A stretch of 64,000 nucleotides of DNA, taken from assembly GCF_036588685.1 (NCBI RefSeq), contig NC_086375.1, forward strand, positions 75,950,001 through 76,014,000, in the 5' to 3' direction. Position numbers and translations under genes: made by a program. Positions 21,925 through 59,809 of the stretch are shown one piece after another; the stretch's first letter is position 1; the number at the start of each line of letters is the position of its first letter. The stretch is from Mytilus trossulus (lineage: Eukaryota). Below the pieces are notes generated by a model, which saw nothing but the letters and a program-made list of their open reading frames with translations, was not told the DNA's origin and searched no databases.

Positions 21925-22421
21925 ATTCGACAGTCGTTTGATTCGACATATTTTATTTTGTAGTATAATTATCTTGTCAACTGTACTCGATCGTAATGCA
22001 ATATATAAGTATTTTTATAAAGTATTATAAAGAAATGAAAACAAAAATATTTGTAAAGTAAAATCTTTTTTTTTGTTGTTCTTAATTAAATGTTCATTGT
22101 TAGATTTGAGGCAAGGGATAAAGAAGATCCTACTGGGCAAAAGTGTTCATATATTTTTATCTCGCATATTCAGTTCTACCTTACCCTTCAGCGCATATTT
22201 ACGACTCCACCTCTACTCATTTTGCTTGAACTTGAGATTAAGAATAGCAGGTACATTTTATGCAATCGATATTTTAACAGCCGATATACAGAATCAGAAT
22301 AACTTGTGTAACTATATTCTTATGAAATTTGATGTAATGATTGTCAAATTTTAAATGTTTAATGTTCAATGCTCTTCAACTTTGTACTTGTTTTTTTTCT
22401 TTTAAAACTATGTTGATATGA

Positions 22422-22465
22422 GCGTCACTGGTGAGTCTTATGTCGACGACACGCGCATCTGGCGT
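22422..22465 (+). ncRNA. Degenerate minimal type I hammerhead ribozyme in retrozyme-type repeat (22362-22490)
   Basis: GCGTCA CTGGTGA GTCT TATGT CGAC GACAC GCGC ATC TGGCGT; core mutated at two conserved positions. Confidence 0.6.
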
Positions 22466-23429
22466 ATTAAATCACAACCCTGGTACCTTATGGTTTGACA
22501 AAATTGTACTCATTTAGCTGTCTTGCACCTGTAAGAAAACAAACAGAAAACTGATTAGAACATTATGAAATCTTATAACTGTCCCGCAACCCTCCTGTAA
22601 AAAAACAACTAGAAAACTGATACAAAACTTTATTTCTTCTGTGGCAATCTAATTGTTTGATGAATAACTCTCCACCCTATTTTATCTGGGGATAACACAC
22701 AGAAATATGACTACATAATCTTAGATAGATGGTCCGAATACACAGTTATCTCTTAGTGCATTTCTTTTAGACAAAACATGAAAATAAAATAAAACCACCT
22801 GCTTTCTCAATAATATTTTTACAGTATGTTGTACTAATTTTGGGACGAATCATATCAAAAATATAGACAATTTCATGCTAAGGAGGTCTTGAAATCTTTT
22901 TACAGCTTCCAAAGTGCTAATTTTAAGCCTTTTTCATCTAAACCAAATCACTACTTTATAATTTATGACCCAATTCTTTTACAGTACACTTGCACCCCCT
23001 TCTTGCTACTTGAAGCATACAACATGAAGAAATACATTTGTAAGAGGTATTAGAAAAATGGCAAGTGACAAACTGTCCACAGTAGGGATTATATATACTC
23101 ATTTTGTTTTAAAGAAACAAAATAAAGCAGGATATCTTGTTTCAATTTGTTTTGTTCGTTAAAGGTTGTAGTTATCAAAAAGTTAAATAGCGAAAATGCC
23201 GAACTCTGAGGACCTTTCTAAACGAAAAGTTCATAAGCATATGGCAAAATCAAAAGCTCAAACACATCAAACGAATAGATAACAACTGTCATATTTCTGA
23301 CTTGATACAAGCCATATTTGTATGTAGAAAATGGTGAATTAAACTTGGACGGGAAAAAGATGAGGGATGCAATGGTGACACTCTGCAAAAATAGAAAGGA
23401 AATACTATAAACAATCGTACAAGTTGGGA

Positions 23430-24560
23430 TATCTAAACACCGATATAGTGACAAGGGAACGTCACTATCTAAAAATGGATAATTTACGATATGAAATAAA
23501 AAATCATCTCTTTTACCATATTTAGTGTTAAGCTTCCATGTTAATGATAAAGATATCAAGATCGAGGAAAGGGCAGTGGTCATTAGAATTGGTATTAGCT
23601 TTATTTAAAGTAAGTTCGATCAACAGGATACATTTCTTTAGTTTGCATACTGATGTTGTCATTATTGAGAGCCAATATATCATCCAGATATCTAAAAGTG
23701 TTATTAAATTTTTGTATCAAATGTTGTCTCGGTGGGTCTTTGCTGATTTTTGTATTAAATTGTAACTCATAACAACACAAAAACAGGCCCACAATAAGTG
23801 GTGCACAGTTATTTCCCATTGGAATTCCAATAACCTTGCGATATACGGAATATCCAAAGCGAACAAAAATGTTATCTAGTAAAAATTCAAGGGCAGATAT
23901 ATTATCAAGGCATGGCCAATTGACATAGTTATTTTGTTTATTGCTGCTAAAAAATGACCTAAAAGAGTTTGAACATATATATTCACATTCTGACTTTTCA
24001 AATGCCCATTTAATTAAGTGTACGATTGTTTTCTTAATAAAAATGTGAGGCAATGAAGTATATAGGATAGAAATATCAAAACTTTGAACAAATTCAAAAT
24101 CACCAATATAAGCATGCAATTTATCAAGTACCTCCAACGAGTTTTTAACACTCCAAAAGTAATTAATTCCACTATTTTTAAAGGCTTTATTTGAACAATT
24201 TATTATCAAGTTTTTCATTGTACCAAGTGTACTGTTAAGAATAATAGCCAATTAAGTAGTGAAACAATGGCTTGAAGACCAAAAAAAATATTTGTAAGGT
24301 GTTTTGTGTAGCTTCGGAAGCCAATATATAGTTGAGACTTTCATTGTATTTGGTTCTGCTTGTAAAGAGGAAGCTAAAAGCTTATGTTTGTTTCAGGAGT
24401 TAAGAAAGCTACCAGGATTATAATTTCGTACGCCAGACGCGCGTTTCGTCTACATAAGACTCACCAGTGACGCTCATATCAAAATAATACAGATGTCGTT
24501 TTCTGAAAATGAAGTCAGTTGGAATGTTGGTGAATTGGTGATTTCTTTTTCAGAACCTCA
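23430..24560 (-). pseudogene. Penelope-like reverse transcriptase, disrupted
   Basis: YWLPKLHK, SFDISILYTSLPH, GIPMGNNCAP, FRYLDDILA, KRDDFLFHIVNYPFLDSDVP motifs in the correct order, with frameshifts. Confidence 0.9.
24430..24473 (-). ncRNA. Minimal type I hammerhead ribozyme, variant core CUGGUGA
   Basis: Minus strand: GCGTCA CTGGTGA GTCT TATGT AGAC GAAAC GCGC GTC TGGCGT; stems I-III pair, single core substitution. Confidence 0.8.
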
Positions 24561-28084: not shown

Positions 28085-28440
28085 ACTTCGTAGATAGTAG
28101 ATGTTGTTGTGTCCTGTTAAATTGTTATACGATGATGACTGATGTTCCCATATTTTGACTATTTTATTGATTGTGACTGTTTATTTAACGCATCATGTAA
28201 ATGTAACGGAATTTGATGAGACTGTTATTAAAGTGAGAGGGTTAGCGCTATAGAACCAGGTTTAATCCACCATTTTCTACCTTTGAAAATGCCTGTACCA
28301 AGTCAGGAATATGACAGTTCTTGTCCATTCGTTTTTGATGCGTTTTGTTTTTTGTTTTTTGTTTTTTGATTTTGCCATGTGATTATGGACTTTCCAAATT
28401 GATTTTCCTCTGAGTTCAGTATTTTTTTGATTTTACTTTA
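28085..28440 (+). repeat. Abundant SINE-like dispersed repeat (GCCTGTACCAAGTCAGGAATATGACAG family)
   Basis: Highly similar to 30625-31062 (+) and 41325-41770 (-); partial copies at 23185-23345 and 41970-42112. Confidence 0.85.
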
Positions 28441-30624
28441 TAATAAATGCAAGCACAACATTTAGAAAAAGAAATTGTTCTTTGAAGATTTCTTTATAAT
28501 AATAATTTGTAGCAATTGCCATCACTTCGATACCGTCGTCGTCGTTTCAAACATCCTCTGAAACAATTTGTAGATTGACCTGAATAATCCTTATGGCATC
28601 AAGTATAGCTGTACTTGCTTAAAAGAGGGACGAATGATACCAAAGGGACAGTCAAACTTATAAATCTAAAAACATAGACCTTAAAAATAGAAAAATCAAA
28701 CATTGTCTTTTATCTTGAAAACAACTTATCAAATACTTGTGAAAAGACCATTGTCGAGAACACTTCTCTTTTTGAAATATGTTAACCAATGACAAAATAC
28801 TTCATAAATTTGAATCACAGTCCTTAATTACAAATGGAGTCAGTCGAAGATTATGCAAGACAATGGATTAAACAAGAGAAAGAAGACCTGGATAATCTTT
28901 CCGACACTCAGACTTGTTCTTTGTGGTTTTGTATTCTTTTGATGGTTTTATGTACTTTGTATCGATCTGATAAGTTAATATTTTTCAACTGATTTTTATA
29001 ATTTGTTCTTATAAAGTACAGTTATACCCCTAGTCATGTAATTAAGCGGTTGTCGTTTGTTGCTGCATATCTTTTTGGTTTGATTATTGCTAGAACACAA
29101 ATTAAACGTTTTTGTTATTCCTCAGAATTGTTTTACGTTTGTTATTTTGTATTGGTAATTGTTGCAGGCTTAACGGTGACATGAAATTGTAAACTTTCAT
29201 TTTATTTGGTCTCTGTTAAAAAATTGTCACATTGGAAATCACACATTATATTCCTATGCCTTCGTTAATTCGACATTTAACGACAATCCTAAAAAAAAAA
29301 CCAGAGTGACAGTCACTGACAATATTGAAAAAAAAATCACTATTGTAGATGGTAAAAATCGTCATTAAGGTCAATTACTCCAATTAAGAGTCGTCAAACT
29401 ATGTCATCCACAGTGTGTTGCTGATCATTTTTCCTGATTTATGTTTCTATCAATCTTTTTCAATTTTAAAGATATGAGGCACAAACACAATAATATGGTA
29501 AAACAACGTCATCAAAGGGCAATTACTCTCATGAGGAGTCGACTGACGATAAAGACCATTCGAATAAAATTTTCAACATATTTATTACAGTTTTAAAATT
29601 AATAGACAACCTTGCATTTTACCCCTCTTGTTCGATTTTAAGCCATGTTGGTCATTTTGGTTGGAAGGCGAGGTTAAGATTTTATAATCTAGATACCTTA
29701 ATAATGATTGTAGTCAAGTGTTGTTAGATTTGGCTCTGTAGTTTCAGAGCCATCTTGGCTTTTTTAAATGCATGCTCTTGTCAACGTTTTGTTCATTTTA
29801 TTATTTAGTTTTAACCATTCTCATGTTTAAGTTCATACATGTATTAAGAATGCACTATGCCTTGTCACATTTTTAATGATCATCTTCTTTTTTTATAAAG
29901 AGTTTCTCTTTATTTGCACATGACCATAATCTTAAACTATACACTTTTGATGTATAATCTAATAGATAGCAAAATATATACAACGATTTTTAATAGACAA
30001 CCATCTATTCATTTATTTAAGAAAGTTATGTTGAATAAACACAGCCAATAGTTAAATGCATTGCAGAATATTATGATATTACAAAGGCTGATTGGATAGA
30101 TACTACATATTTTTGATTCATTCAAAATGGATATCTGTTGTATATCTTCTGTTGCAGCAGTTTTTTGACTACTGAGTCTTTTATTTTTAAGATATATGCA
30201 TTTTTCTATTATAAATTTTCCTTTAAATTAATGTTAACGCTTTTATATTGGTTTGTTTCAATGATAAACTGTTTCTATGAATATATATAGAATTATTAAG
30301 TTTCTTATGTCATTTTTATCATAAAAAGATATAATCAAATCTTTATTGTAAGTGCGAGCTCTTTCTGTCTTTTAAAATATCCCATACGTTCAAGTACTGA
30401 ATGTATGTTCTATTTTCGCAAGCCTCCACACACACAACTGTACTTCTTTGTACCTTTCACTTCTATTTGAAGAGAGGTTCATTCGTACCTGAAATTCGAT
30501 ATATTATTCTGTGTCGAAACCACTATTTTTCGAATTGTTATCTGTACTGAGAAATTGGTTATCACATTCTTTTGTTTAATGTTTGACTTTTTGCTATTTG
30601 AATAAATAGAATAAATGCGAAATT

Positions 30625-31062
30625 TTAAAATTGTTTATATAACCATTGAACGACAAAAATTTGTGACGTATAAAATTTTCTGACGTCAGCCACGGGAATC
30701 AATGAATTTGTTTGTAGATAGATGTTTTTTGTGTTCTGTTTATTGATCTTTTTGAAATTGTTACACGATGATGACTGCTGTACCCATATTTTGACTATAT
30801 TGTCTATTATGTCTGTTTAGTTCACGCATCATTGTATATATAATGGAATTTGATGAGACTGTTAACAAAGTGAGAGTTTTAACGCTAAAAACCTAGGTTG
30901 TATCCACCATTTTCTACATTTGAAAATGCCTGCACCAAGTCAGGAATATGACAGTTCTTGTCCATTCATTTTTTATGTGTTTTGTCATTTGATTATGCCA
31001 TGTGATTATGGACTTTCCAATTGATTTTCCTCCGAGTTCAGTATTTTTGAGATTTTACTTTT
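30625..31062 (+). repeat. Same SINE-like repeat family
   Basis: Aligns by eye with 28085-28440 and with the reverse complement of 41325-41770. Confidence 0.85.
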
Positions 31063-31292
31063 TCATCAAAGATAACAGGATTGAAATTTTATACTTGCTC
31101 CAGACGCGCGTTTCATCTACAAAAGACCAATCAGTAACGATCAAAACAAAAAATATTAAACACCAAAATAAAAGTACGAAGTTGAAGAGCATTAAGGACC
31201 AAAAATACCTAAAAGTTTTGCCAAATACAGCTAAGGTAATCTATTCCTGAATTAGTAACGTCTTATATAGTATTTAAAAAATTCAAAGTTTT
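31062..31292 (-). repeat. Retrozyme-type repeat fragment with degenerate hammerhead (31097-31140)
   Basis: Minus strand: CGTTA CTGATTG GTCT TTTGT AGAT GAAAC GCGC GTC TGGAGC; collinear with 44708-44970. Confidence 0.7.
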
Positions 31293-38269: not shown

Positions 38270-38500
38270 GTTAAATCATGTCAACACAGAAATGCTGACT
38301 ACTGGGCTGATGATATCCTCGGAAAATAAAAACAAAACCTGCAGTGGCATCGACCCGGATGGTTGTAAATAAACTTATCAAAGATACCAGGATTGAAATT
38401 TGATTTGCGCCAAACGCGAGTTTCGTCTACAAAAGACTCACCAGTGACGCTCGAAAAAAAAACATGTTAAAGGCCAAATAAAGTACGAAGTTGAAGAGCC
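38270..38500 (-). repeat. Retrozyme-type repeat fragment with degenerate hammerhead (38407-38450)
   Basis: Minus strand: GCGTCA CTGGTGA GTCT TTTGT AGAC GAAAC TCGC GTT TGGCGC. Confidence 0.7.
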
Positions 38501-40292
38501 ATTTTACATATCTTTTAACCTCTCTGGGATTTAAAGAAATTTTTTTTGACTGAAGGCAAAAACTGGATCGTTTTCTTTCACTAAATCATTGGGACATATA
38601 TAATATTTCTAAATACCTTTTATTGCAGAAATTTAGTCTTGATATTTAAGGAAAGAAACATATATGTCTCTGTTGAGGAATAAGTTTTAATACTGTATAC
38701 ATTTTTAAGTTATCAAAAGTACTGAAATTTCCACATCCGTCTACTAACACATTAATTAGTCGAGCCCTTTGTTGTCCAATCGTAAATAGAATTGATTGAT
38801 AACCAATCTTATTTGATAATTCTTATATATATATCATGTTTTAATTTGAGATTTGTATTGTATATCTAAAAGATCTTTCCATGCGACATATACTTCTTTT
38901 CAAAACATACTTTTCTTTTCAGTTTTTTATAAGGACCATGATATTGCATTTCCTAAAATCTTTTATCTTCTGAAAACATGAATAGATTCGAATAATTTCT
39001 AAAAAATATTTTAATCCAGGTTAAGTTAAAACCTTTTACGTGCAATTTTTAGCATTGTTACACCCTCCTGCACAGTGTGGTTTGTATAAAGTATTTTATT
39101 TCTCACTTTATCTGTCTTTTGTACCTTCTATTTTTATGTATTGTTGGTTTAATTTAGAACATACTGAGTGGGTTTGTTAGTGAGTTATTTCACTGTAATT
39201 GTAAGGGAAATTTGAACTAATGTTCAGTTATTGTGTATATATATGTACCGTAGAGAAATATAGAGCTTATTTTCATTTTAGTGTGTATCTACCGACTCAC
39301 TTGCAACATAAACTTAAATGCGTATGATGTAAATCTATGTTGTTCCAAAAAATGAAAAGCTCTTAACAAATACGAAGCAGTCCAGTAAAAATAAATAATG
39401 ACTTCAATCATGAGCTACCAACTTTTGACGTGTTATTTGCCCTGAAATTAAGAAAAGATTATTCGAACAGTAAATTATTTTAGATACACAGTTCAATAGT
39501 CTCTTTCTAAATCAAAATTTATGACACATCACTATTTATGAATTAATGAAATTTTGTATTCTGCGGTTTATATTTACGACACATTGTCTTTATTTCTTGA
39601 GGAAATCCCGTATTATAATGGGGCTTTTTTTTTTAATTTATAAAGCAATCAACAAAATTTATTATTATTGGTTCTTAGTAATCTGCAACAACGTATTCAA
39701 TTACATCTTTTAAATGTATCAGTTCTTTGCCTTTTTTTCAGAAAATGTAATGAAGTTTGTATAAATGTGTCTTAATGACCAACAGTAATTTTTGAAATTA
39801 TATATATTCTGTCTGATTTTTGCAATATTTCGTATTGCAAGAATTTTAGTGGTTTTTTTTATGGTAAAACAATTTAAACAAGAAAACTAACGGCTTGTTT
39901 TCATAAGAACCCAATTACTCGCAATTTATCACAGTAAGTTCAAAAACAATAACAACAAATAAAACAAACGCTGCATCAACAAATAAATTAACAAACATCC
40001 AATGGAGTCAGTGTTAAGACTTGAATCATAAACAGTCAGAGTTATCGACAGATTGTAGAGCCATGATGTGCATATGTATATTACAATAATATTCTAGTTT
40101 GATTTTAATTTACTGATAACAACATTGATATAATGGAAACATTAATCAAAGATCTATAAATTACAGTCTTGAATTGGTAATCTTTTAGAACAAGTTTATT
40201 TAACGAATCGATAAGTTTCCCGGATCGTTTCTAAATTTCCAGGCTCGGTAAACACCTTCTCCGTTAATAAAATCAACGGTACCAATTTTGTT

Positions 40293-40336
40293 GCACATGA
40301 TGCGCATTTCGACAAAACATGTCTCTTCAGTGATGC
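40293..40336 (-). ncRNA. Hammerhead ribozyme copy with damaged stem I
   Basis: Minus strand: GCATCA CTGAAGA GACA TGTTT TGTC GAAA T GCGC ATC ATGTGC; core intact, two stem I mismatches next to the cleavage site. Confidence 0.75.
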
Positions 40337-40641
40337 TCGTGGCCAAAATATTTGAAGTCCAAAGCTTATATAAAAGATGAAGAGCTATAATCCAAAAGGT
40401 CCAAAAAGTATAGCCAAATTCGTGAAAAGAATCAAAGCTTTGCATGAGGGAGATACATTCCTTTATTTATAATAATTTTTAATACTTTGTAACAGTAAAT
40501 TTTAATAACACAAAAAATCCGTATTTTCATGCAGGTACCGAAGTACTGGCTACTGGGCTGGTGATACCCTCGGGGACTAATAGTCCACCAGCAGAGGCAT
40601 TGACCCAGTGGTAGTAATAAAATCAACGGTACCAATTTATT

Positions 40642-40685
40642 GCACCAGATGCGCATTTCGACAAAACATGTCTCTTCAGTGATGC
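40642..40685 (-). ncRNA. Intact minimal type I hammerhead ribozyme
   Basis: Minus strand: GCATCA CTGAAGA GACA TGTTT TGTC GAAA T GCGC ATC TGGTGC; CUGANGA and GAAA cores, AUC cleavage triplet, stems I and II fully paired, palindromic GCGC loop III. Confidence 0.9.
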
Positions 40686-41324
40686 TCGTGGCCAAAATAT
40701 TTGAAGTCCAAAGCTTATATAAAAGATGAAGAGCTATAATCCAAAAGGTTCGGATTTTCTTACCCTTTTGAAATAAGTTGTCTACAGTGTCTGCAGGTAC
40801 AATCAAACTCTATTTGTTTATATCTACTGAAAGTTTAAACAAACCAAATGGTAAATCTTTGATTTTTTTTTAATTTTCTCCACTCTCCGGATATTTAATT
40901 GTATTTGATTGAAGTTGAAGAAATTCATGAAAAGAAATATAATGTTTACAGGTGCTGTGTATGCTTCACATAAGTCTTGGTCAATTTCAATCTATGGAAT
41001 GTGACGTAATCAAGCAGGTATCCCATAAACATATACTAGTATATAGATCAAGGACAGATAGCGACTGTGATCATTGTCCTCAATTTGCAGATACCAGACA
41101 AATCAATTGTATGAGTTTTCATAACTAACTGTTTATAAGAAGTGAGGAATTCTGATGAGAACATTGAGATCCCTAGATATCCTTGTAGATGAAGAAGGGA
41201 AATGAAACAAAGAGGGGAAAATTTCAAGTCATGAAACACCGTGCAATCTGGTCTTCAAGTAATAGAAACTACCAGAAAAACAAATCCTTTTTTTAAATTA
41301 AAATAATGTCGCTCGATAAAAAGA

Positions 41325-41770
41325 AAAATCACAAAAATACTGAACTTAGAGGAAAATCAATTCGGAAAGTCCATAATCACATGGCAAAATCAAATAACAA
41401 AACGCATCAAAAACGAATGGACGAGAACTGTCATATTCCTGACTTGGTACAGGCATTTTCAAATGTAGAAAATGTTGGATTAAACCTGGTTTTATAGCGC
41501 TAACCCTCTCACTTTAATGACAGTCTCATAAATTCCGTTATATTTACATTGATGCGTTAAATAAACACATACAATAGATCAAATAGTCAAAATATGGGTA
41601 CATCAGTCATCATCGTATAACAATTTAACCTTGTAAAAGGGACAATTTAACAGAACACAAAAACAACTACTATCTACAAACACATTCATTGACTTGAGTG
41701 TCTGACGTCAGAAAGTTTTATACGTACAAATATTTGTCGTTCAATGTGCTTACAAACAATTTTAAAATTT
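41325..41770 (-). repeat. SINE-like dispersed repeat (same family as 28085 and 30625)
   Basis: Reverse complement contains GCCTGTACCAAGTCAGGAATATGACAG and flanking blocks. Confidence 0.85.
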
Positions 41771-42733
41771 ACATAGGTAATGTTAGCATACAGGTTTAAA
41801 AATCAAAAGTATGTAAGAATAGATTACAGAAATAGACTGAGATTTAAACTAGTCCAAAAGTTATATATAGAATTAATAGGAATCCACAAATAGTTAATTC
41901 CACAAATAGTTAATTAATTGTCAAATGATAGAAAAGCCATTTCTTCATCCAATACCGCATTGATGAACGTAGTGCCTGTACAAAATCAGAGATATGATAG
42001 TTATTTTCCATCCATATGATGCGTTTGAGCTTATGGATTTTTGCCATTTGATAACGGATTTCTCGTTTTGTATTTTCCTGGGAATTCGGTGTTTTTTTTT
42101 ATATTTTACTTTATTTAGAAGAATATTGAACTTCTGTTTAGGACCAATACTTAGAAGAAAAATCTGGCAATGAGTATATGCTGAATATAATGTATGGTTC
42201 TATCATATATCTCTTATGAAAAGATATCTTATTCAACTATTGTAAAACTGTGGTTTTTTTAAAGTTCAATCCGTCTGAATAAACAACTACGTTTGCGGTA
42301 AGCAATACTGGTTAAAATATCAGCAACACATTAAATGCTATTTACATAATGTAAAATGTAATTCATCTTTAGGACATGATAAATAATTGGTTTAGCAGGT
42401 AGTATGATTTTGTGTTGCAATATTGTGGAAATAGCTTAAAAAAACAGAATAATAGAAAAAAGTAACTATACGTTTTAATTTAAGAATATATACCCCCAGT
42501 TCTCAAGTAAACTGACATCAGTTTTCCCATTTTTGAAATAAATATGAAGAAATTTCCGTTCAATTAAACTACATTGGAATCTAACAAGACTACAATTCTT
42601 TTATCTGACAAATCTCCAGTTACAGTAAATCCAGAAGAACGACTGAAATTGTGTTATTTTGTTATAGTATACTTGCGCTTTGACGTGACTGTAAACATGA
42701 TCATTTTACTTGAATTCAAAATATTCTTTTGAA

Positions 42734-43570: not shown

Positions 43571-45841
43571 TAGTGACGTGACGTTTTTAAATAATTACAG
43601 GTTAATTATCCATTCCAAAGATTTTTTAAAAATCGTATTTTTTTATAAACATAATAGTTAAATATAACTCCAATACATTCACGTCTCATTGGCTATACAT
43701 ATAGCTGGTAAAAATATACTTCCTTTATAAAGTCATAAGTATTAAAGAGACTATGTCAGGAATCACTGAGCCTTGAATAGAATGTCTTTTTGTTTTGTAT
43801 GAAATTGGAATTAAACAAATTGTATTTCATAAGATGCTTGCCAAAATATAACCTAAAACTAGTTAATACATTTTACAAAGTTAAAGAAGGAAATCAACAC
43901 TGTAAATTAAAATGAAAATAACATAAATATTGAACTCTAATAGAAATTCGAAAAGGAAAAATTGGCAAGTTAAAAGGTCAAACACAAGTGGTTTTATATG
44001 GCTGTATAATGGCACGTCTATGTCGCCGCCAACGTCGTCGGATTTTTTTTATTTGTATAAGTGTATAGACCCCTTTGACATTATATCACAAGTTTTATGC
44101 CACAAAAGGAAGGTTCAGGTTGTGTTTTTTTTTTTGGTTTTGTTATTGTTCTAACCGTGAAGGAATTATTAATAAACGACCAAAAACAAGGTTTCTGGTT
44201 TCCGGACAATAGATTCAGTATACAGTGGCGGATCCATAAATTTTCATAAGTGGGTCCCACTGACTGACCTAAGAGCGGGCCCGCTCCAGTCACGCTTCAG
44301 TGATTCCCTATATAAGCAACCAATTTTTTCCCCAAAAAAAGGGGGGGGGGCTATTATGCATTCGGTGATCTATACGATATGTCTGTGTCTAAACTAACAA
44401 AATAATGAAACTTTTACCACGTTTTTTGTTGTTTAACATCTTTGTCATCTGTCAGCTAAGTACTAAACATAACCTATTCCCTAATATGATTGTTATACCG
44501 AGTGTGCTTTTTCATTGTTATACGACGTGTCTCTGTATTTTGTACATCAAATATTTATTTATTTATTTTTTAATGTTTCTGTTATGGGTTAGTTTAGATA
44601 ATGTAATATGTCTTATCGTTTGTAGTTCGAATACATTATGTAGTTATAACTGCATAGTCCTGACTTGGTACAGGCATTTGCTTATTTTAAAATTGTCTTT
44701 CAATAGATATCAAAGTTACCAGGATTATAATCTAATACGCCAGACGCGTGTTTGCCTACATAAGACTTATCAGTGACGCTCAGATCAAAATAGTTATAAA
44801 ACAAACAAGTCAAAAGTTGAATAGCATTGAGCATTCAAAATTCCAAAAAAGTTGTGCCAAATACAGTTAAGGTAATCTATTCATGGGATAAGAAATCCTT
44901 AGTTTTTCGAATATATCATAGTTTTGGAAATTTGGAAATTTATGAACATAACCATATAATTGATATTCAATGCCACCATTGCCATGAACACAATTTGCGC
45001 GAGTAATGTTAAAATAATTTTATAATGTTTAAGATAACATGTAAGATACGTAGGTGCGTTACTGTTTGTGATTCTGTGGTGTCTGTCTGTGATGTAATAT
45101 GTTCGTTGTTGTTCTACGGTTTGTATGTTGAGTCGAATACTATATTATTCTTTTGGTGCGTTCCTCTGTAATGAATGTTCTTGCTTGTATTTGTTCTGTA
45201 TTCCTGTCACGTAGTGTGGTCATATTCTTTAAACATTGTCATAAAGTGGGAGGTTTGGCTACCCATTAAACCAGGTTCAACTCATCACTTCTTTTGTTAA
45301 AACGACCTGTACTAAATCAGGAGTAAGGCAGTTGCTATCAAATAGTTCGTTTCTATGTATGTTGGCGTTTGTTTTGTTGCACTCCAGTGTTACTTTTGTT
45401 TCTTTGTTTTCGTCTTATATTTGAAGTTTTCCCCTCGGTTTTAGTCTATAACCCGGGTTTGTTGTCTCTCAATCGATTGACGACTTTTGAACACCGGTAT
45501 AATACTGCTGCCTTCGTTAATTCATAAAAAAAATTGATGATTGTGGATAATTACCGTTGTAAAAGATTTTATAGTTGGGGCCCCCGTTTTCAAATAGGTT
45601 CAAAGTAACGTGCAAAGGGTCTTATACTAAACTTTTGTCCGTTTTTATCAAAAATGATTGAGGTTCTTTAACAGTTGACTTTTAACTTTGTTTTGAGATT
45701 TTTAAAGGAAGTATACCAGCTATATTTAAAGCCAATGAGTTTAATATATTTAACTCTTATGGTGTTTTTTTTAAATACGATTTTTAAAAATCTGTGGTAA
45801 GAATAATAGTCTTGTAATTATTTCAAGACGTCACGCCACTG
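43571..45841. mobile_element. Old TIR element (hAT-like ends) containing nested repeats
   Basis: TAGTGACGTGACGT..ATAATTACA..TTTTTAAAAATCGTATTT (43571-43642) is an imperfect inverse of 45770-45841 (..ACGTCACGCCACTG); no TSD found. Confidence 0.5.
44708..44970 (-). repeat. Retrozyme-type repeat fragment with degenerate hammerhead (44737-44779)
   Basis: Minus strand: GCGTCA CTGATAA GTCT TATGT AGGC AAAC ACGC GTC TGGCGT. Confidence 0.7.
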
Positions 45842-47530
45842 TTCACCAGTCATTCAAATTATTTCAAGAACGTAAATTATGGGCCTGGTCTTCAAATTGG
45901 GCCACAAAAGGTCCAAATTATAATTGTTTGATTTTAAACGTTGGCATGATGAGTTCTTGTGGTTCTTTGATATGCTGAATCTAAACATTTTGATTGTCAA
46001 TTATTTATTTATGTCGATATGTTCGATTTGCTTGTGTATGTAATAAAGTATTTGATTTAAGCTACAGTAATCGCTGTATTACTGAAAAATAATCAAACCA
46101 GGGTATTCGATATCACAATCTTGTCCGCACTCACAAAATTACTAAATCGATTCAAATACACCATTTGTAATAATAAATCACAAAACCACTTACGGGGGGA
46201 TGCTTGATTTTCAATAAATTAATAGACAGAATCTTTAATTAGTTTAATTGAGGACTGGAGCTGGCATGTCAGTAACTGCTAGGCGTCCGTTGTAAATATT
46301 AATGTATGTATCATTGTCTTTTCAACTTAATTTCGTTTGTTACCTATTCTGACATCAGACTATCGACTTCATTTGATCTGAATTAAACTTTGTGTATTGT
46401 TTGTGGATTGTACATATGCTAAGTATAGGGGTAGGGTTGAGATCTCCAGTTTAACACCACCAGATTTGAGCGCATGTCCCAAGTCTCTGGCCTATTTTAG
46501 TCTTATTTTTTTTTAATTTTAGTTCATTTATAGTTTGGAGTTTAATATGACGTCCATTCTTTTGTCTGTTTATTGCCTTTTATTCGGGTTATTATTTTGT
46601 TGACACAGTCCCCATTTCCATCCACAAGTTTATGTTTGTTGACACAGTAGTCCTGGATAACTGAACAGATAACAGAGATACCCACCCCTTAGGATGATAG
46701 TGGCTAAGTATGCTTTTTATTTCGCTCTGTAGTTTCAGAGGAGATTGATGTAAAAATTAATGTACAACTATGATAGATGTTGACCTTATAGGAATTTGGG
46801 TTCTCAACGCTCCTCAAGTTTGTACATTTGTATTTTACTTGGCCTTTTAACTGTTTTTTTTTTAAATTCTAGCATTACTGATGAGTCTTTTGGTGATGAA
46901 ACTTTTTTACACTTGGTGTTTGGGCAAACCAGCTATACATACATGTAAGATAAGATAGATATTGTGGATTCATTATTTTTCTTTTGGTACTAGATTTCAT
47001 GGATTTTGTAAGTATAAAATTAAATGAACCACAAATTCAAATCTTTCAAGAAGAACAAATTTCCCATTAACCTATATGCATATGCAGGATTTGTCCCACC
47101 CACAACAACAAGTAGCCATTAAAACAATATTTCCTTTATCCACAAATTCATGTAAATCCCTACCTAGTATGTTTTGTATATTCAGCATGTTTACATGTTT
47201 GATAAATAATAAATTAAATACATATGTAGTTATAAATTTGTAATTAGTAAATAAATTTGATTGTTAAGCTACAATACATTTCATTCAAAAGTAGTTGATC
47301 ATAAATAGTTACTTCCCAGTGAAATCTAAATGAAAATATGTGTAGCTACATGTAATGTATAAATTGATGACCTGCCTGCTCATTAATTGGTTTAATTGTC
47401 TGGAAAACAGAATATTGTCTGTTGAGCCTTTTGATAATGTTGTGTTTTATGTGAACATCTTATTTCCACAAATCTGAACCACTAGTTTTAAATAAATACA
47501 AGATTTCATATGACAATTTATATATAACAG

Positions 47531-47950: not shown

Positions 47951-50725
47951 AACCAGATGCTCCGCAGGGCGTAGCTTTATACGACTGCAGGGTTGAACCC
48001 TGAACGGTTGGGGCAATTATGGACACAACATTCAAGCTGGATTCAGCTCTTAATTTGGATTGTGATTAAATAGTTGACACAGCATAGGTTTCTGACACAG
48101 AATGAATGTGTTCTAATGAACTTAAAATTTTTGTTTTCTCTTAGAGCAATTCACTATGGTGTTGAATATTAATCCTCTCAAAAAAATGTTTAAAGAAATT
48201 TTCTATTTATTTATGAAATTTCAAATGAGAAAATTGAACCCAATTTTTTTAATCACATCCCCCTTTCCCTTATTCTAAAACTAATCTCAATCAAAATTTC
48301 TAATGGAGTTTGCAACAACAACTACTCATTCAAATACATCATAAAATATTAAGATGTAAAAAAACTGCTTGTTTAATATCACTGAATGGTAAAGATTATT
48401 TTAATTTATCAGATGGTAGTAAAAAGTGAATATACATTGTATATTGTATATAACAAAGATTTAAGTTGATTCTGGACAAAGAAAGATAACTCCAAATAAA
48501 ACAAATCTTGAAATTAGATATTTCTTGCTTACTATTCTGGACAAAGAAAGATAACTCTAATTAAAAAAAAAATTGCTATTTCACAATATTGTGCAATTAG
48601 ATATTTCTTGCCATTGCGCAATACTGTGCAATTGAAAAGACTTGCTATTGCACATTGCACAATACTTAATATATTAATTTCAGATCCTGATTTGAACCAA
48701 CTTGAAAACTGGGCCCATAATCAAAAATCTAAGTACATGTTTGGATTCAGCATATCAAAGAACCCCAACTTTAAATTTTTGTTAAAATCAAACTTAGATT
48801 TAATTTTGGACCCTTTGGACTTTAATGTAGGCCAATTTGAAAACAGGACCAACCAGATGCTCCGCAGGGCGTAGCTTTATACGACCGCAGAGGTTGAACC
48901 CTGAACGGTTGGGGCAAGTATGGACACAACATTCAAGCTGGATTCAGCTCTAAATTTGGATTGTGATTAAATAGTTGACACAGCATAGGTTTCTGACACA
49001 GAATGAATGTATTCAAATGAACTTAAAATTTTTGTTTTCTCTTAGAGCAATTCACTATGCTGTTGAATATTAATCCTCTCAAAAAAATGTTTGAAGAAAT
49101 TTTCTTTTTATTTATGAAATTTCAAATGAGAAAAATTGAACCCAATTTTTTAATCACATCCCCCTTTCCCTTATTCCAAAACTAATTTCAATTAAAATAT
49201 TCTAATGGAGTTTGCAACAATTACTACTCATTTAAATACATCATAAAATATTAAGATGTAAAAAAACTGCTTGTTATCACTGAATGGTAAAGATTATTTA
49301 AATTTATCAGTTGGTAGTAAAAAGTGAATATACATTGTATATTGTATATAACAAAGATTTAAGTTGATTCTGGACAAAGAAAGATAACTCCAATTAAAAA
49401 AAAATCTTGCAGATATTTCTTGCTTACTATACTGGACAAAGAAAGATAACTCTTAATTAAAAAAAATTTTGCTATTTCACAATATTGTGAAATTAGATAT
49501 TTCTTGCCATTGCACAATACTGTGCAATTGAAAAGACTTGCTATTGCACAAAACTTAATATAATAATTTTAGATCCTGATTTGGACCAATTTGAAAACTG
49601 GGCCCATAATCAAAAATCTAAGTACATGTTTAGATTCAGCATATCAAAGAGGCCCAAGAATTTAATTTTTGTTAAAATCAAACTTAGTTTAATTTTGGAC
49701 CCTTTGCACTTTAATTTAGACCAATTTTAAAACTGGACCAAAAATTAAGAATCTACATACACAGTTAGATTTGGCATATCAAAGAACCCCAATTATTCAA
49801 TTTTTGATGAAATCAAACAATGTTTAATTTTGGACCTCAATATGGACCAACTTGAAAACTGGGCCAATAATCAAAAATCTTAGTACATTTTTAGATTCAG
49901 CATATCAAAGAACTCAAAGGTTTTAATTTTTGTTAAAATCAAACTAAGTTTAATTTTGGACCCTTTGGACCTTAATGTAGACCAATTTGAAAACGGGACC
50001 AAAAATTAAGAATCTACATACACAGTTAGATTCGGCATATTAAAGAACCCCAATTATTCAATTTTGATGAAATCAAACAAAATTTAATTTTGGACCCTTT
50101 GGGCCCCTTTTTCCTTAACTGTTGGGACCAAAACTCCCAAAATCAATACCAACCTTCCTTTAATAGTCATAAACCTTGTGTTTAAATTTCATAGATTTCT
50201 ATTTACTTATACTAACGCTATGGTGAGAAAACCAAGAAAAATGCTTATTTGGGTCCCTTTTTGGCCCCTAATTCCTAAACTGTTGGGACCGAAACTCCCA
50301 AAATCAATACCAACCTTCCTTTTGTAATCATAAACATTGTGTTTAAATTTCATAAATTTCTATTTACTTTAACTTAAGTTATTGTGCGAAAACCAAGAAT
50401 AATGCTTATTTGGGCCCTTTTTTGGCCCCTAATTCCTAAACTGTTGAAACCAAAACTCCCAAAATCAATCCCAACCTTTCTTTTGTGGTCATAAACCTTG
50501 TGTCAAAATTTCATAGATTTCTATTAACTTAAACTTAAGTTATAGTGCGAAAACCAAGAAAATGCTTATTTGGGCCCTTTTTGGCCCCTAATTCCTAAAA
50601 TGTTGGGACCAAAACTCCCAAAATCAATACCAGCCTTCCTTTTATGGTCATAAACCTTGTGTTAAAATTTCATAGATTTCTATTCACTTTTACTAAAGTT
50701 AGAGTGCGAAAACTAAAAGTATTCG

Positions 50726-50769
<44 letters not shown>

Positions 50770-51895
50770 CAACGTGATAGCAATATACGACGAAAATTTT
50801 TTTAAAATTTGCGGTCGTATAAAAATGAAGAATTTACATACCGGTACACAGTTAGATTTGGCATATCAAAGAACCCCATTTATTCAATTTTTGATGAAAT
50901 CAAACAAAGGTTAATTTTGGACCCCGATTTGGACCAACTTGAAAACTGGGCCAATAATCAAGAATCTAAGTACATTTTTAGATACAGCATATCAAAGAAC
51001 CCAACCGATTCATTTTTTGTCAAAATCAAACTAAGTTTAATTTTGGACCCTTTGGACCTAAATGTAGACCAATTTGAAAACGGGACCAAAAGTTAAGAAT
51101 CTACATACACAGTTAGATTCGGCATATCAAAGAACCCCAATTATTCAATTTTGATGAAATCAAACAAAGTTTAATTTTGGACCCTTTGGGCCCCTCATTC
51201 CTAAACGGTTGGAACCAAAACTCCCAAAATCAATATCAACCTTCCTTTTATGGTCATAAACCTTGTGTTTAAATTTCATAGATTTCTATTTACTTATACT
51301 AACGTTATGGTGCAAAAACCAAGAAAAATGCTTATTTGGGTCCCTTTTTGGCCCCTTATTCCTAAACAAATGGGACCTTAACTCCCAAAATCAATACCAA
51401 CCTTCCTTTTGTGGTCATAAACATTGTGTCTAAATTTCATAGATTTCTATTAACTTAAAACTAAAGTTATTGTGCAAAAACCAAGAATAATGCTTATTTG
51501 GGCCCTTTTTTGGCCCCTTATTCCTAAACTGTTGAAACCAAAACTCCCAAAATCATTCCCAACATTTCTTTTGTGGTCATAAACCTTGTGTCAAAATTTC
51601 ATAGATTTCTTTTAACTTAAACTAATGTTATAGTGCGAAAACCAAGAAAATGCTTATTTGGGCCCTTTTTGGCCCCTAATTCCTATAATGTTGGGACCAA
51701 AACTCCCAAAATCAATACCAACCTTCCTTTTGTGGTCATAAACCTTGTGTTAAAATTTCATAGATTTCTATTCACTTTTACTAAAGTTAGAGTGCGAAAA
51801 CTAAAAGTATTCGGACGACGACGACGCAGACAACGACGCCGACGTGATAGCAATATACGACGAAATTTTTTTCAAATTTTGCGGTCGTATAAAAA
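47951..51895. mobile_element. Helentron-type non-autonomous element (outer copy) in TRAPPC1 intron
   Basis: Starts AACCAGATGCTCCGCAGGGCG; subterminal IR TATACGAC(T/C)GCA / TGCGGTCGTATA; terminal hairpin; ~160-bp internal tandem repeats; (GAC)n; ends in A-run. Confidence 0.8.
48851..50825. mobile_element. Second copy of the same Helentron-type element nested in the first
   Basis: Same start and end sequences as the outer copy; about four 160-bp repeats at 50090-50700; (GAC)14 at 50726-50767. Confidence 0.85.
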
Positions 51896-53065: not shown

Positions 53066-56000
53066 TAATCAGAAGCATGATACTTACATTACTGTATATC
53101 TGATGAAGAGTGTCCCTAATCAGAAGCCCTATAGTGATACTTACATTACTGTATATCTGATGAAGAGTGTCCCTAATCAGAAGCCCTATAGTGATACTTA
53201 CATTACTGTATATCTGATGAAGAGTGTCCCATAGTGATACTTACATTACTGTATATCTGATGAAGAGTGTCCCTAATCAGAAGTCCTATAGTGATACTTA
53301 CATTACTGTATATCTGATGAAGAGTGTCCCTAATCAGAAGCCCGATAGTGATACTTACATTACTGTATATCTGATGAAGAGTGTCCCTAATCAGAAGCCC
53401 TATAGTGATACTTACATTACTGTATATCTGATGAAGAGTGTCCCTAATCAGAAGCCCTATAGTGATACTTACATTACTGTATATCTAATGAAGAGTGTCC
53501 CTAATCAGAAGCCCTATAGTGATACTTACATTACTGTATATCTGATGAAGAGTGTCCCTAATCAGAAGCCCTATAGTGATACTTACATTACTGTATATCT
53601 GATGAAGAGTGTCCCTAATCAGAAGCCTTATAGTGATACTTACATTACTGTATATCTGATGAAGAGTGTCCCTAATCAGAAGCCCTATAGTGATACTTAC
53701 ATTACTGTATATCTGATGAAGAGTGTCCCTAATCAGAAGCCCTATAGTGATACTTACATTACTGTATATCTGATGAAGAGTGTCCCTAATCAGAAGCCCT
53801 ATAGTGATACTTACATTACTGTATATCTGACGAAGAGTGTCCCTAATCAGAAGCCCTATAGTGATACTTACATTACTGTATATCTGATGAAGAGTGTCCC
53901 TAATCAGAAGCCCTATAGTGATACTTACATTACTGTATATCTGATGAAGAGTGTCCCTAATCAGAAGCCCGATAGTGATACTTACATTACTGTATATCTG
54001 ATGAAGAGTGTCCCTAATCAGAAGCCCTATAGTGATACTTACATTACTGTATATCTGATGAAGAGTGTCCCTAATCAGAAGCCCTATACTTACATTACTG
54101 TATATCTGATGAAGAGTGTCCCTAATCAGAAGCCCTATAGTGATACTTACATTACTGTATATCTGATGAAGAGTGTCCCTAATCAGAAGCCCTATAGTGA
54201 TACTTACATTACTGTATATCTGATGAAGAGTGTCCCTAATCAGAAGCCCTATAGTGATACTTACATTACTGTATATCTGATGAAGAGTGTCCCTAATCAG
54301 AAGCCCGATAGTGATACTTACATTACTGTATATCTGATGAAGAGTGTCCCTAATCAGAAGCCCGATAGTGATACTTACATTACTGTATATCTGATGAAGA
54401 GTGTCCCTAATCAGAAGCCCTATAGTGATACTTACATTACTGTATATCTGATGAAGAGTGTCCCTAATCAGAAGCCCGATAGTGATACTTACATTACTGT
54501 ATATCTTATGAAGAGTGTCCCTAATCAGAAGCCCGATAGTGATACTTACATTACTGTATATCTGATGAAGAGTGTCCCTAATCAGAAGCCCTATAGTGAT
54601 ACTTACATTACTGTATATCTGATGAAGAGTGTCCCTAATCAGAAGCCCGATAGTGATACTTACATTACTGTATATCTGATGAAGAGTGTCCCTAATCAGA
54701 AGCCCGATAGTGATACTTACATTACTGTATATCTGATGAAGAGTGTCCCTAATCAGAAGCCCTATAGTGATACTTACATTACTGTATATCTGATGAAGAG
54801 TGTCCCTAATTAGAAGCCCTATAGTGATACTTACATTACTGTATATCTGATGAAGAGTGTCCCTAATCAGAAGCCCGATAGTGATACTTACATTACTGTA
54901 TATCTGATGAAGAGTGTCCCTAATCAGAAGCCCGATAGTGATACTTACATTACTGTATATCTGATGAAGAGTGTCCCTAATCAGAAGCCCTATAGTGATA
55001 CTTACATTACTGTATATCTGATGAAGAGTGTCCCTAATCAGAAGCCCGATAGTGATACTTACATTACTGTATATCTGATGAAGAGTGTCCCTAATCAGAA
55101 GCCCGATAGTGATACTTACATTACTGTATATCTGATGAAGAGTGTCCCTAATCAGAAGCCCGATAGTGATACTTACATTACTGTATATCTGATGAAGAGT
55201 GTCCCTAATCAGAAGCCCTATAGTGATACTTACATTACTGTATATCTGATGAAGAGTGTCCCTAATCAGAAGCCCTATAGTGATACTTACATTACTGTAT
55301 ATCTGATGAAGAGTGTCCCTAATCAGAAGCCCTATAGTGATACTTACATTACTGTATATCTGATGAAGAGTGTCCCTAATCAGAAGTCCTATAGTGATAC
55401 TTACATTACTGTATATCTGATGAAGAGTGTCCCTAATCAGAAGCCCGATAGTGATACTTACATTACTGTATATCTGATGAAGAGTGTCCCTAATCAGAAG
55501 TCCTATAGTGATACTTACATTACTGTATATCTGATGAAGAGTGTCCCTAATCAGAAGCCCTATAGTGATACTTACATTACTGTATATCTGATGAAGAGTG
55601 TCCCTAATCAGAAGCCCTATAGTGATACTTACATTACTGTATATCTGATGAAGAGTGTCCCTAATCAGAAGCCCTATAGTGATACTTACATTACTGTATA
55701 TCTGATGAAGAGTGTCCCTAATCAGAAGCCCTATAGTGATACTTACATTACTGTATATCTGATGAAGAGTGTCCCTAATCAGAAGCCCGATAGTGATACT
55801 TACATTACTGTATATCTGATGAAGAGTGTCCCTAATCAGAAGCCTTATAGTGATACTTACATTACTGTATATCTGATGAAGAGTGTCCCTAATCAGAAGC
55901 CCTATAGTGATACTTACATTACTGTATATCTGATGAAGAGTGTCCCTAATCAGAAGCCCTATAGTGATACTTACATTACTGTATATCTGATGAAGAGTGT

Positions 56001-59000
56001 CCCTAATCAGAAGCCCGATAGTGATACTTACATTACTGTATATCTGATGAAGAGTGTCCCTAATCAGAAGCCCGATAGTGATACTTACATTACTGTATAT
56101 CTGATGAAGAGTGTCCCTAATCAGAAGCCTTATAGTGATACTTACATTACTGTATATCTGATGAAGAGTGTCCCTAATCAGAAGCCCTATAGTGATACTT
56201 ACATTACTGTATATCTGATGAAGAGTGTCCCTAATCAGAAGCCCTATAGTGATACTTACATTACTGTATATCTGATGAAGAGTGTCCCTAATCAGAAGCC
56301 CTATAGTGATACTTACATTACTGTATATCTGATGAAGAGTGTCCCTAATCAGAAGCCCTATAGTGATACTTACATTACTGTATATCTGATGAAGAGTGTC
56401 CCTAATCAGAAGCCCTATAGTGATACTTACATTACTGTATATCTGATGAAGAGTGTCCCTAATCAGAAGCCCTATAGTGATACTTACATTACTGTATATC
56501 TGATGAAGAGTGTCCCTAATCAGAAGCCCGATAGTGATACTTACATTACTGTATATCTGATGAAGAGTGTCCCTAATCAGAAGCCCTATAGTGATACTTA
56601 CATTACTGTATATCTGATGAAGAGTGTCCCTAATCAGAAGCCCTATAGTGATACTTACATTACTGTATATCTGATGAAGAGTGTCCCTAATCAGAAGCCC
56701 GATAGTGATACTTACATTACTGTATATCTGATGAAGAGTGTCCCTAATCAGAAGCCCGATAGTGATACTTACATTACTGTATATCTGATGAAGAGTGTCC
56801 CTAATCAGAAGCCCTATAGTGATACTTACATTACTGTATATCTGATGAAGAGTGTCCCTAATCAGAAGCCCTATAGTGATACTTACATTACTGTATATCT
56901 GATGAAGAGTGTCCCTAATCAGAAGCCCGATAGTGATACTTACATTACTGTATATCTGATGAAGAGTGTCCCTAATCAGAAGCCCTATAGTGATACTTAC
57001 ATTACTGTATATCTGATGAAGAGTGTCCCTAATCAGAAGCCCGATAGTGATACTTACATTACTGTATATCTGATGAAGAGTGTCCCTAATCAGAAGCCCG
57101 ATAGTGATACTTACATTACTGTATATCTGATGAAGAGTGTCCCTAATCAGAAGCCCGATAGTGATACTTACATTACTGTATATCTGATGAAGAGTGTCCC
57201 TAATCAGAAGCCCTATAGTGATACTTACATTACTGTATATCTGATGAAGAGTGTCCCTAATCAGAAGCCCGATAGTGATACTTACATTACTGTATATCTG
57301 ATGAAGAGTGTCCCTAATCAGAAGCCCGATAGTGATACTTACATTACTGTATATCTGATGAAGAGTGTCCCTAATCAGAAGCCCGATAGTGATACTTACA
57401 TTACTGTATATCTGATGAAGAGTGTCCCTAATCAGAAGCCCTATAGTGATACTTACATTACTGTATATCTGATGAAGAGTGTCCCTTATCAGAAGCCCGA
57501 TAGTGATACTTACATTACTGTATATCTGATGAAGAGTGTCCCTAATCAGAAGCCCTATAGTGATACTTACATTACTGTATATCTGATGAAGAGTGTCCCT
57601 AATCAGAAGCCCGATAGTGATACTTACATTACTGTATATCTGATGAAGAGTGTCCCTAATCAGAAGCCCGATAGTGATACTTACATTACTGTATATCTGA
57701 TGAAGAGTGTCCCTAATCAGAAGCCCGATAGTGATACTTACATTACTGTATATCTGATGAAGAGTGTCCCTAATCAGAAGCCCTATAGTGATACTTACAT
57801 TACTGTATATCTGATGAAGAGTGTCCCTAATCAGAAGCCCGATAGTGATACTTACATTACTGTATATCTGATGAAGAGTGTCCCTAATCAGAAGCCCGAT
57901 AGTGATACTTACATTACTGTATATCTGATGAAGAGTGTCCCTAATCAGAAGCCCGATAGTGATACTTACATTACTGTATATCTGATGAAGAGTGTCCCTA
58001 ATCAGAAGCCCGATAGTGATACTTACATTACTGTATATCTGATGAAGAGTGTCCCTAATCAGAAGCCCGATAGTGATACTTACATTACTGTATATCTGAT
58101 GAAGAGTGTCCCTAATCAGAAGCCCGATAGTGATACTTACATTACTGTATATCTGATGAAGAGTGTCCCTAATCAGAAGCCCGATAGTGATACTTACATT
58201 ACTGTATATCTGATGAAGAGTGTCCCTAATCAGAAGCCCGATAGTGATACTTACATTACTGTATATCTGATGAAGAGTGTCCCATAGTGATACTTACATT
58301 ACTGTATATCTGATGAAGAGTGTCCCTAATCAGAAGTCCTATAGTGATACTTACATTACTGTATATCTGATGAAGAGTGTCCCTAATCAGAAGCCCTATA
58401 GTGATACTTACATTACTGTATATCTGATGAAGAGTGTCCCTAATCAGAAGTCCTATAGTGATACTTACATTACTGTATATCTGATGAAGAGTGTCCCTAA
58501 TCAGAAGCCCTATAGTGATACTTACATTACTGTATATCTGATGAAGAGTGTCCCTAATCAGAAGCCCTATAGTGATACTTACATTACTGTATATCTGATG
58601 AAGAGTGTCCCATAGTGATACTTACATTACTGTATATCTGATGAAGAGTGTCCCATAGTGATACTTACATTACTGTATATCTGATGAAGAGTGTCCCTAA
58701 TCAGAAGCCCGATAGTGATACTTACATTACTGTATATCTGATGAAGAGTGTCCCATAGTGATACTTACATTACTGTATATCTGATGAAGAGTGTCCCTAA
58801 TCAGAAGCCCGATAGTGATACTTACATTACTGTATATCTGATGAAGAGTGTCCCTAATCAGAAGCCCGATAGTGATACTTACATTACTGTATATCTGATG
58901 AAGAGTGTCCCTAATCAGAAGCCCGATAGTGATACTTACATTACTGTATATCTGATGAAGAGTGTCCCTAATCAGAAGCCCTATAGTGATACTTACATTA

Positions 59001-59809
59001 CTGTATATCTGATGAAGAGTGTCCCTAATCAGAAGCCCTATAGTGATACTTACATTACTGTATATCTGATGAAGAGTGTCCCTAATCAGAAGCCCGATAG
59101 TGATACTTACATTACTGTATATCTGATGAAGAGTGTCCCTAATCAGAAGTCCTATAGTGATACTTACATTACTGTATATCTGATGAAGAGTGTCCCTAAT
59201 CAGAAGCCCGATAGTGATACTTACATTACTGTATATCTGATGAAGAGTGTCCCTAATCAGAAGCCCGATAGTGATACTTACATTACTGTATATCTGATGA
59301 AGAGTGTCCCTAATCAGAAGCCCGATAGTGATACTTACATTACTGTATATCTGATGAAGAGTGTCCCTAATCAGAAGCCCTATAGTGATACTTACATTAC
59401 TGTATATCTGATGAAGAGTGTCCCTAATCAGAAGCCCTATAGTGATACTTACATTACTGTATATCTGATGAAGAGTGTCCCTAATCAGAAGCATGATACT
59501 TACATTACTGTATATCTGATGAAGAGTGTCCCTAATCAGAAGCATGATACTTACATTACTGTATATCTGATGAAGAGTGTCCCTAATCAGAAGCATGATA
59601 CTTACATTACTGTATATCTGATGAAGAGTGTCCCTAATCAGAAGCCCGATAGTGATACTTACATTACTGTATATCTGATGAAGAGTGTCCCTAATCAGAA
59701 GCCCCATAGTGAGACTTACATTACTGTATATCTGATGAAGAGTGTCCCTAATCAGAAGCCCGATAGTGATACTTACATTACTGTATATCTGATGAAGAGT
59801 GTCCCTAAT
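53066..59809 (-). repeat. Minisatellite of about 120 units (57 bp; rare 51- and 43-bp variants) made of the TRAPPC1 exon 3 / intron 3 junction
   Basis: Minus-strand unit: ATTAGGGACACTCTTCATCAGATATACAGTAAT|GTAAGTATCACTAT(A/C)GGGCTTCTG; the first 33 nt are identical to the end of the exon at 59777-59809; array length fits 110x57 + 5x51 + 5x43. Confidence 0.98.

Follow-up and report, generated by a model that had tools for sequence, protein, structure and literature searches.

The retrozyme insertion described here appears to be a 5'-truncated and likely dead-end copy, likely inserted by a Naiad-type Penelope-like reverse transcriptase that would bind a stem-loop common to both elements and initiate copying roughly 6 nt upstream of that structure; from the sequence comparisons below, we put the probability of this reading at roughly 0.7. 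The insertion lies in a 64,000-nucleotide stretch of Mytilus trossulus DNA (contig NC_086375.1, positions 75,950,001 to 76,014,000), the whole of which is called the window. Its family, here family A, is, judged by sequence, a metazoan non-LTR retrozyme of a kind already described in mussels. Family A bears on the open question of which enzyme spreads animal retrozymes and how the circle is primed; with a helper that has been named and has open reading frames, a candidate signal of 64 nt and a predicted nucleotide for the start, the helper question becomes testable. An answer would also supply Naiads, which have no hammerheads, with a defined RNA signal. The features of the insertion are listed in Table 1.

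Table 1. Features of the retrozyme insertion, in window positions.
Feature	Position	Strand	Remarks
Whole insertion	40265..40749	-	485 bp, equal to 1.39 units of family A (350-bp unit)
5'-truncated partial unit	40648..40749	-	unit positions 249-350; the apparent terminal repeat
Upstream type I hammerhead	40642..40685	-	all helices intact; predicted cut after 40648
349-nt unit between predicted cut sites	40299..40647	-	11 differences from the 350-nt family majority
64-nt element common to Naiad 5' ends	40550..40613	-	predicted bulged stem-loop; outer stem 40609-40552
Downstream hammerhead	40293..40336	-	core intact; predicted cut after 40299; stem I broken by TG-to-AT at 40298-40297
34-nt tail	40265..40298	-	its T-rich end marks the fixed 3' end of the family

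When both strands of the window were scanned for the motif, two strict type I hammerheads and no others came up, both on the minus strand, with CUGAAGA cores at 40679 and 40330 and C17 after AUC at 40648 and 40299, which places the predicted cuts 349 nt apart. An earlier sequence-only reading of this DNA had described such a same-strand pair, and the scan agreed with it on both cut sites and on the spacing. The conserved CUGANGA, GAAA and UH were present in both copies. In the upstream hammerhead, stem I forms 6 of 6 pairs (GCAUCA/UGGUGC, including one G-U), stem II is GACA/UGUC, and stem III consists of two pairs and a GCGC loop. Its description as fully canonical held for the core and all helices but not for the model and folding scores: the proposed search with hammerhead models gave no Rfam match at gathering score in the window, and the isolated motif folded no better than shuffled sequences (z +0.6). 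In the downstream hammerhead, for which two stem I mismatches had been reported, both pairs adjoining the predicted cut are indeed broken (AUGUGC), and closure of the core by helix I fails. The 38-nt hammerhead motif had 427 exact matches in the genome and the reversed control none; the paired hammerheads are therefore confirmed not to be a chance observation.

The two hammerheads are the leftover of a 5'-truncated insertion of 1.39 units and not a designed pair. The insertion, 97% identical to the majority unit of family A, covers the family unit from position 249 onward, extends 34 nt beyond the second cut site and is not flanked by a target-site duplication. A reading of the 136-bp repeats at 40749-40615 and 40400-40265 (97% alike) as LTRs was rejected because the 5' ends vary among the copies of the family; the terminal repeat is a partial unit, and family A, judged by its ends, has no true LTRs. 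The T-rich end of the tail may correspond to the start point of reverse transcription. A Pol III SINE reading was dropped on inspection, since the unit is full of T-runs. As weak candidates for an empty site, possibly derived from paralogous repeats, one contig (depth 5) ran past the site with 8 letters instead of the insert, and in three runs contigs skipped the insert together with about 25 flanking bases, the short side being only 21 letters long.

Next to these structural features stands the question of whether the locus gives rise to RNA. The RNA data consisted of one raw-read run from a different individual, of which about 6% was read, and 2104 family reads were aligned. In the unit body, first mates on the plus strand were about three times as frequent as those on the minus strand; under the usual library convention, on which this strand reading depends, the family RNA is mainly of the ribozyme strand. 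Reads spanning the ribozyme junction fit circles and uncut multimers alike, and read ends showed no pile-up at the cut sites or at +33 in the approximately 6% of the run that was read. The sequence-only reading had proposed that the window locus itself is transcribed and cut twice, and that the freed 349-nt RNA could close into a circle. In its favour, neither catalytic core is damaged, their spacing is 349 nt, the family is transcribed, and mussel retrozyme circles are in print; we nevertheless regard this proposal as improbable, given the two broken stem I pairs beside the second cut and the composition of the family RNA. The TG-to-AT change at that site was found in 1 of 101 family copies examined, that is, it is private to the window copy, and the reads carried the family letter at 40298 in 236 of 236 cases and at 40297 in 230 of 236. 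Only 9 of the 2104 reads were at least 99% like the window copy, and its flanks had no depth in the portion read (about 6%). Because the second-cut mismatches are private and absent from the family RNA reads, the window locus is probably no source of monomers and, from its sequence, probably cannot release the 349-nt RNA; pairing as a double hammerhead, given the known arrangement of such dimers, would be expected to use the same broken 3' strand at the second site. The window copy is ordinary and probably inactive.

Family A as a whole has a unit of 350 bp, within the 150-450 bp of retrozyme repeats, with a type I hammerhead, and occurs dispersed and in tandem, from single partial copies up to arrays of about 60 units. 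Together with the family RNA in the reads, these properties uphold the earlier assignment to the non-LTR retrozymes. Ends were mapped in 105 elements, comprising the best DNA matches and the exact-motif matches listed for the first four contigs; the counts leave out 4 duplicates, 3 stretches inside arrays and ends cut by an edge. The 3' ends proved to be fixed, with 87 of 94 at +31 to +40 past the cut site and 74 of 94 at +32 to +36, and two elements below the identity filter (L044 and L099) ended at +35 and +34. The 5' ends, in contrast to this, varied over the unit (95 copies), with a cluster at positions 346-4 round the cut site in 10 of the 55 copies that were long enough (scan-corrected p 0.005), four of them at +1 to +4 and six 3-5 nt beyond the cut site, a pattern that bears indirectly on self-cleavage. 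Family A therefore displays the pattern of Penelope-like mobilisation, namely a fixed 3' end, 5' truncation and partial tandems. A general target-site duplication was not seen, only 1 of 84 copies having one (15 bp); anchored flank matches of 5-7 nt were in slight excess (19 against about 8 expected), which may reflect microhomology. Units differed by a median of 2.1% within an array and 4.2% between arrays, and subfamily sites were concordant within arrays at 76 of 95 sites.

Three independent copies (L009, L011 and L086) all begin at unit position 46, within the element, and further 5' ends cluster at positions 90-97, the 3' base of the stem; both groups are perhaps stops caused by structure. 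One 165-bp copy occurs with identical flanks at three places (L031, L114 and L125), and hence rides inside another repeat or duplication.

The fixed 3' end of family A lies about 6 nt before a GC-rich stem-loop at unit positions 40-97; neither this end nor the element common to Naiad figured in the sequence-only reading. The genome contains at least four hammerhead retrozyme families, and the element is found in all four (A to D). Their tails measure 33, 39, 41 and 47 nt, and all four end at a T-run 5-6 nt before the same stem, so that the end follows the element and not the ribozyme. In family D, whose ends were read directly from the sequence letters, 13 of 16 tail ends fall at the T-run; the ends of families B and C are looser, with 18 of 33 and 9 of 13 matches near the junction, respectively, and this looseness counts against the reading favoured here. 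The differences in stems II and III between the hammerhead families preserve pairing, and the compensatory changes that the sequence-only reading had pointed out relative to a second family are real, though the window copies of that family are decayed. Such decayed copies of families B and C, most with core changes, lie on the minus strand at 38302-38499, 44702-44828, 24398-24484 and 31065-31193 and on the plus strand at 22368-22489 and 46827-46902. Family D (L217, L221-L245) has a 349-350-bp unit and a different hammerhead, with a UUC cut triplet and a short stem II, and its 23-nt marker has 542 exact copies.

The same element opens two autonomous Penelope-like elements of this genome. Naiad-1, found by a GIY-YIG search in which 150 of 615 endonuclease candidates were scored, has a 4277-bp unit and a 1056-aa frame with an N-terminal endonuclease (PF01541, E 6e-7, residues 183-273) and the motifs CxC, GPKF, DKA and YIDD; it begins with the same letters as the published Naiad_Mgal consensus, and its opening element is more diverged and comes with a hairpin insert. 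Naiad-2, found by a pattern search, has a unit of about 3.37 kb, and 2 of the 18 copies examined have its 998-aa frame without interruption; it carries the Naiad motifs, matches RVT_1 with an E of 9e-6, which is below Pfam's cut-off, and its protein is 55% identical to that of Naiad-1. Both have the make-up of Naiads (N-terminal GIY-YIG, CxC, GxKF/Y, DKA and a C-terminal reverse transcriptase), and no hammerhead was found in either unit. The start of Naiad-2 agrees with the family A element at 56 of 64 positions with no gap (E 7e-20), and with the window copy at 55 of 64; this is the only significant match between Naiad-2 and the retrozyme unit.

The ends of the Naiads fall at the same place as those of the retrozymes. 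Among 18 Naiad-1 loci with the open reading frame, 16 show a 3' end, all within -1 to +7 of the element junction; when all fragments are counted, 37 of 60 stop at the junction. For Naiad-2, 32 of 42 non-continuing ends fall 3-7 nt before the stem. Family A and an autonomous Naiad thus have a signal in common, at the same position relative to their ends. The element motif also opens at least 16 Naiad consensus entries in the accessible supplement of PMC8557442 (14 of the 22 matches of one 8-mer, plus two from a second term). A protein search for further Naiad families returned only relatives of Naiad-1. Some of the abbreviations of the motif-bearing consensus sequences we take to be those of corals, oysters and hemichordates.

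Fragments of the Naiad-1 3' end lie in the window on the minus strand at 41317-41555, 8772-9003 and 23164-23348 and on the plus strand at 30816-31063, 28200-28453 and 41973-42112, one of them on the retrozyme's own strand, 570 bp upstream of it; such fragments may have arisen by 5' truncation, or by copying of the pseudo-LTR upstream of the element and nothing more. Two Naiad-2 3'-end fragments, at 11467-11642 and 28620-28671 (both minus strand), stop just before the element. In two further loci (L254 and L255), tandem units of about 200 bp combine the 3' end of Naiad-2 with the element and a short stretch beyond it, and contain neither an open reading frame nor a hammerhead; from their make-up they are a candidate ribozyme-free non-autonomous Naiad derivative.

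Comparison of the retrozymes with the Naiads argued for a conserved RNA structure. In the majorities of families A-D and Naiad-1, 13 of 13 core pairs are kept while six pairs change, a count whose anchors favour conserved stems; in the outer stem, three pairs are changed on both sides relative to Naiad-1. These counts were made without the MAFFT alignment, which was out of register. Relative to Naiad-2, one C-G pair becomes U-A, and an alignment fold including Naiad-2 returned the same nested stem-loop, with 96.7% of cells paired and 3 pairs changed on both sides; these paired-change figures come from a few related families, which tempers their support for a shared RNA signal, and 96.7% is not a probability. 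A pseudoknot was rejected in favour of the nested stem-loop because its extra helix has no both-side changes and is partly broken in Naiad-2 and Naiad-1. In the window copy, a G-to-A change at 40601 breaks one pair of the element.

Such paired changes bear on the suggestion that the element is mainly an internal promoter at the DNA level, taken from Naiad, with the ends being set by something else. The position of the element at the very start of the Naiad consensus sequences would suit a promoter, as would the sequence conservation of its cores, CTGCTGGTGGA and CCCCGAG. Pairs with both members altered, however, point to RNA structure, and a promoter would not give six families the same 3' end offset, so that we consider this explanation very improbable. 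An RNA-processing signal, either a self-cleaving ribozyme or a nuclease site, that makes an RNA end 6 nt upstream at which copying then starts, would account for the fixed end equally well. Consistent with such a signal, Naiads have no hammerheads and 2 of 20 Naiad-2 loci start exactly at the element. Against it, 5' ends of retrozymes at positions 30-38 are at chance level (2 of 95), RNA read ends do not pile up at that site, the junction is intact in most full Naiad copies, and the element has no Rfam match. On balance, processing as the origin of the end seems unlikely.

It is also conceivable that the helper is a canonical, hammerhead-bearing Penelope-like element or a LINE, and that the likeness to Naiad reflects only ancestry. 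We examined 14 stretches with canonical Penelope-like elements, which have a C-terminal endonuclease; none held the element, and none matched the retrozyme unit outside separate retrozyme copies. The coincidence of retrozyme ends with Naiad ends likewise speaks against a canonical helper, and although the scoring of 150 of 615 endonuclease candidates leaves room for other helpers, we give this explanation very little credence.

We therefore favour a Naiad-type helper, for which the following sequence of events may be proposed. Multi-unit copies elsewhere would be transcribed, as the observed family RNA suggests; the hammerheads would cut out unit-length RNA, and a host ligase would close the circle, as is in print for a mussel family. 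A Naiad protein would then bind the element, nick AT-rich DNA and start cDNA synthesis inside the RNA at +33, the position indicated by the fixed end, and reverse transcription would continue back through the ribozyme junction of an RNA that is circular or multi-unit. Copying would stop at variable points, here after 1.39 units, and near the cut site more often than expected by chance; the window copy would later have gained the changes that block its second cut and weaken its element. Only 33 nt separate +33 from the cut site; to produce any longer copy, the enzyme must have passed a junction that was joined or never cut, which makes the template a circle or an uncut multimer. That the helper is a Naiad, that it binds the element, where it starts and that the template is circular are each what we infer from the sequences.

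This proposal draws on the fixed 3' ends, the variable 5' ends and the cut-site cluster, on the greater likeness and subfamily concordance of units within arrays, on the common offset of retrozyme and Naiad ends before the element, on the both-side pair changes relative to Naiad-1 and Naiad-2, and on the lack of the element in the 14 canonical stretches. The motif at the start of 16 published Naiad consensus sequences (PMC8557442, accessible supplement) and the behaviour of a purified Penelope-like enzyme, Anolis Poseidon PAc, point the same way: in the accessible account of that enzyme, reverse transcription begins within the RNA, 3' of the hammerhead, and depends on RNA lying 3' of that position (Frangieh et al. 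2024, PMC11167929). On the other side, a circle and an uncut multi-unit transcript are indistinguishable in these data, the Anolis enzyme did not need ribozyme cleavage according to the same account, and RNA read ends do not pile up at the cut sites. Ligation scars were not evident at the junction, where changes showed no excess (0.026 against 0.05-0.06 elsewhere), and the hammerhead fold is disfavoured in the predicted family circle (stem I probability 0.0). Within arrays, 19 of 95 subfamily sites were discordant, and one locus (L061) is a mosaic. Nor does internal initiation alone explain why the 3' end of most full Naiad copies is not followed by a second element.

A broader version, to which we give slightly less than even odds, would be that animal Naiads open with a conserved RNA stem-loop that recruits a telomerase-like reverse transcriptase and sets the cDNA start 6 nt upstream, and that mussel hammerhead circles captured this 64-nt module and are copied by rolling-circle reverse transcription. 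If so, module and ribozyme together would make up a minimal, portable cassette by which any small circular RNA could be inserted into DNA.

The retrozymes of M. galloprovincialis are the closest described relatives of this kind: hammerhead repeats of 350-390 bp have been reported with circles on Northern blots, and a cloned monomer, from a family that may differ from family A, cleaved itself as a single unit at a rate of about 0.1 per min (Cervera and de la Pena 2020, PMC7229834, accessible text). Like family A, they are AT-rich repeats of about 350 bp with a type I hammerhead, dispersed and in tandem and transcribed, and the hammerhead is blocked in some predicted mussel circles, as in the predicted family A circle (PMC7229834). 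The accessible text lists two ribozyme families, one of which may be family A, against at least four in this genome, and it reports no fixed end or helper, unlike here. A review describes retrozyme repeats, in its accessible part, as lacking a conserved motif that would name the autonomous partner (PMC7761336).

On the Naiad side, Naiad_Mgal and Naiad_Mcor (Craig et al. 2021, PMC8557442) have the 5' element and the same 3' end offset as the retrozyme, and Naiads also resemble it in 5' truncation, partial tandems and the lack of a general target-site duplication. They differ in encoding an endonuclease-reverse transcriptase and in lacking hammerheads, the retrozyme sharing only about 64 nt with them. 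The accessible text of PMC8557442 does not describe the element, and the start of Naiad-2 does not match the two Mytilus consensus starts compared with it. PAc resembles the mussel proposal in its internal start past the hammerhead and its AT-rich targets (PMC11167929), a likeness drawn by description; unlike the retrozyme, it is autonomous, belongs to the canonical clade and has an AC-rich stem-loop and two start sites. A general link between retrozymes and Penelope-like elements was proposed in 2014 and 2020 and has been argued for Xenopus (Li, Clavereau, Pollet 2026, preprint 10.64898/2026.07.22.740005). The Xenopus retrozymes are alike in being non-autonomous users of Penelope-like machinery; as far as the accessible preprint text goes, the link there rests on pseudo-LTR likeness and co-occurrence, mussels, bivalves and initiation do not appear, and Naiad is named only as present in coral. 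In the accessible literature, a scope that leaves most subscription journals and some supplements outside, no link between Naiads and retrozymes was found in print.

Two other kinds of repeat were seen in the window. At 53078-59809 lies a 57-bp satellite of about 115 near-identical units, which contains CTGATGA; as it has no GAAA, it was ruled out as a hammerhead by the motif scan. Short tandem arrays of 135-bp and 161-bp units occupy 49579-51801 and are presumably typical mussel Helitron-associated repeats.
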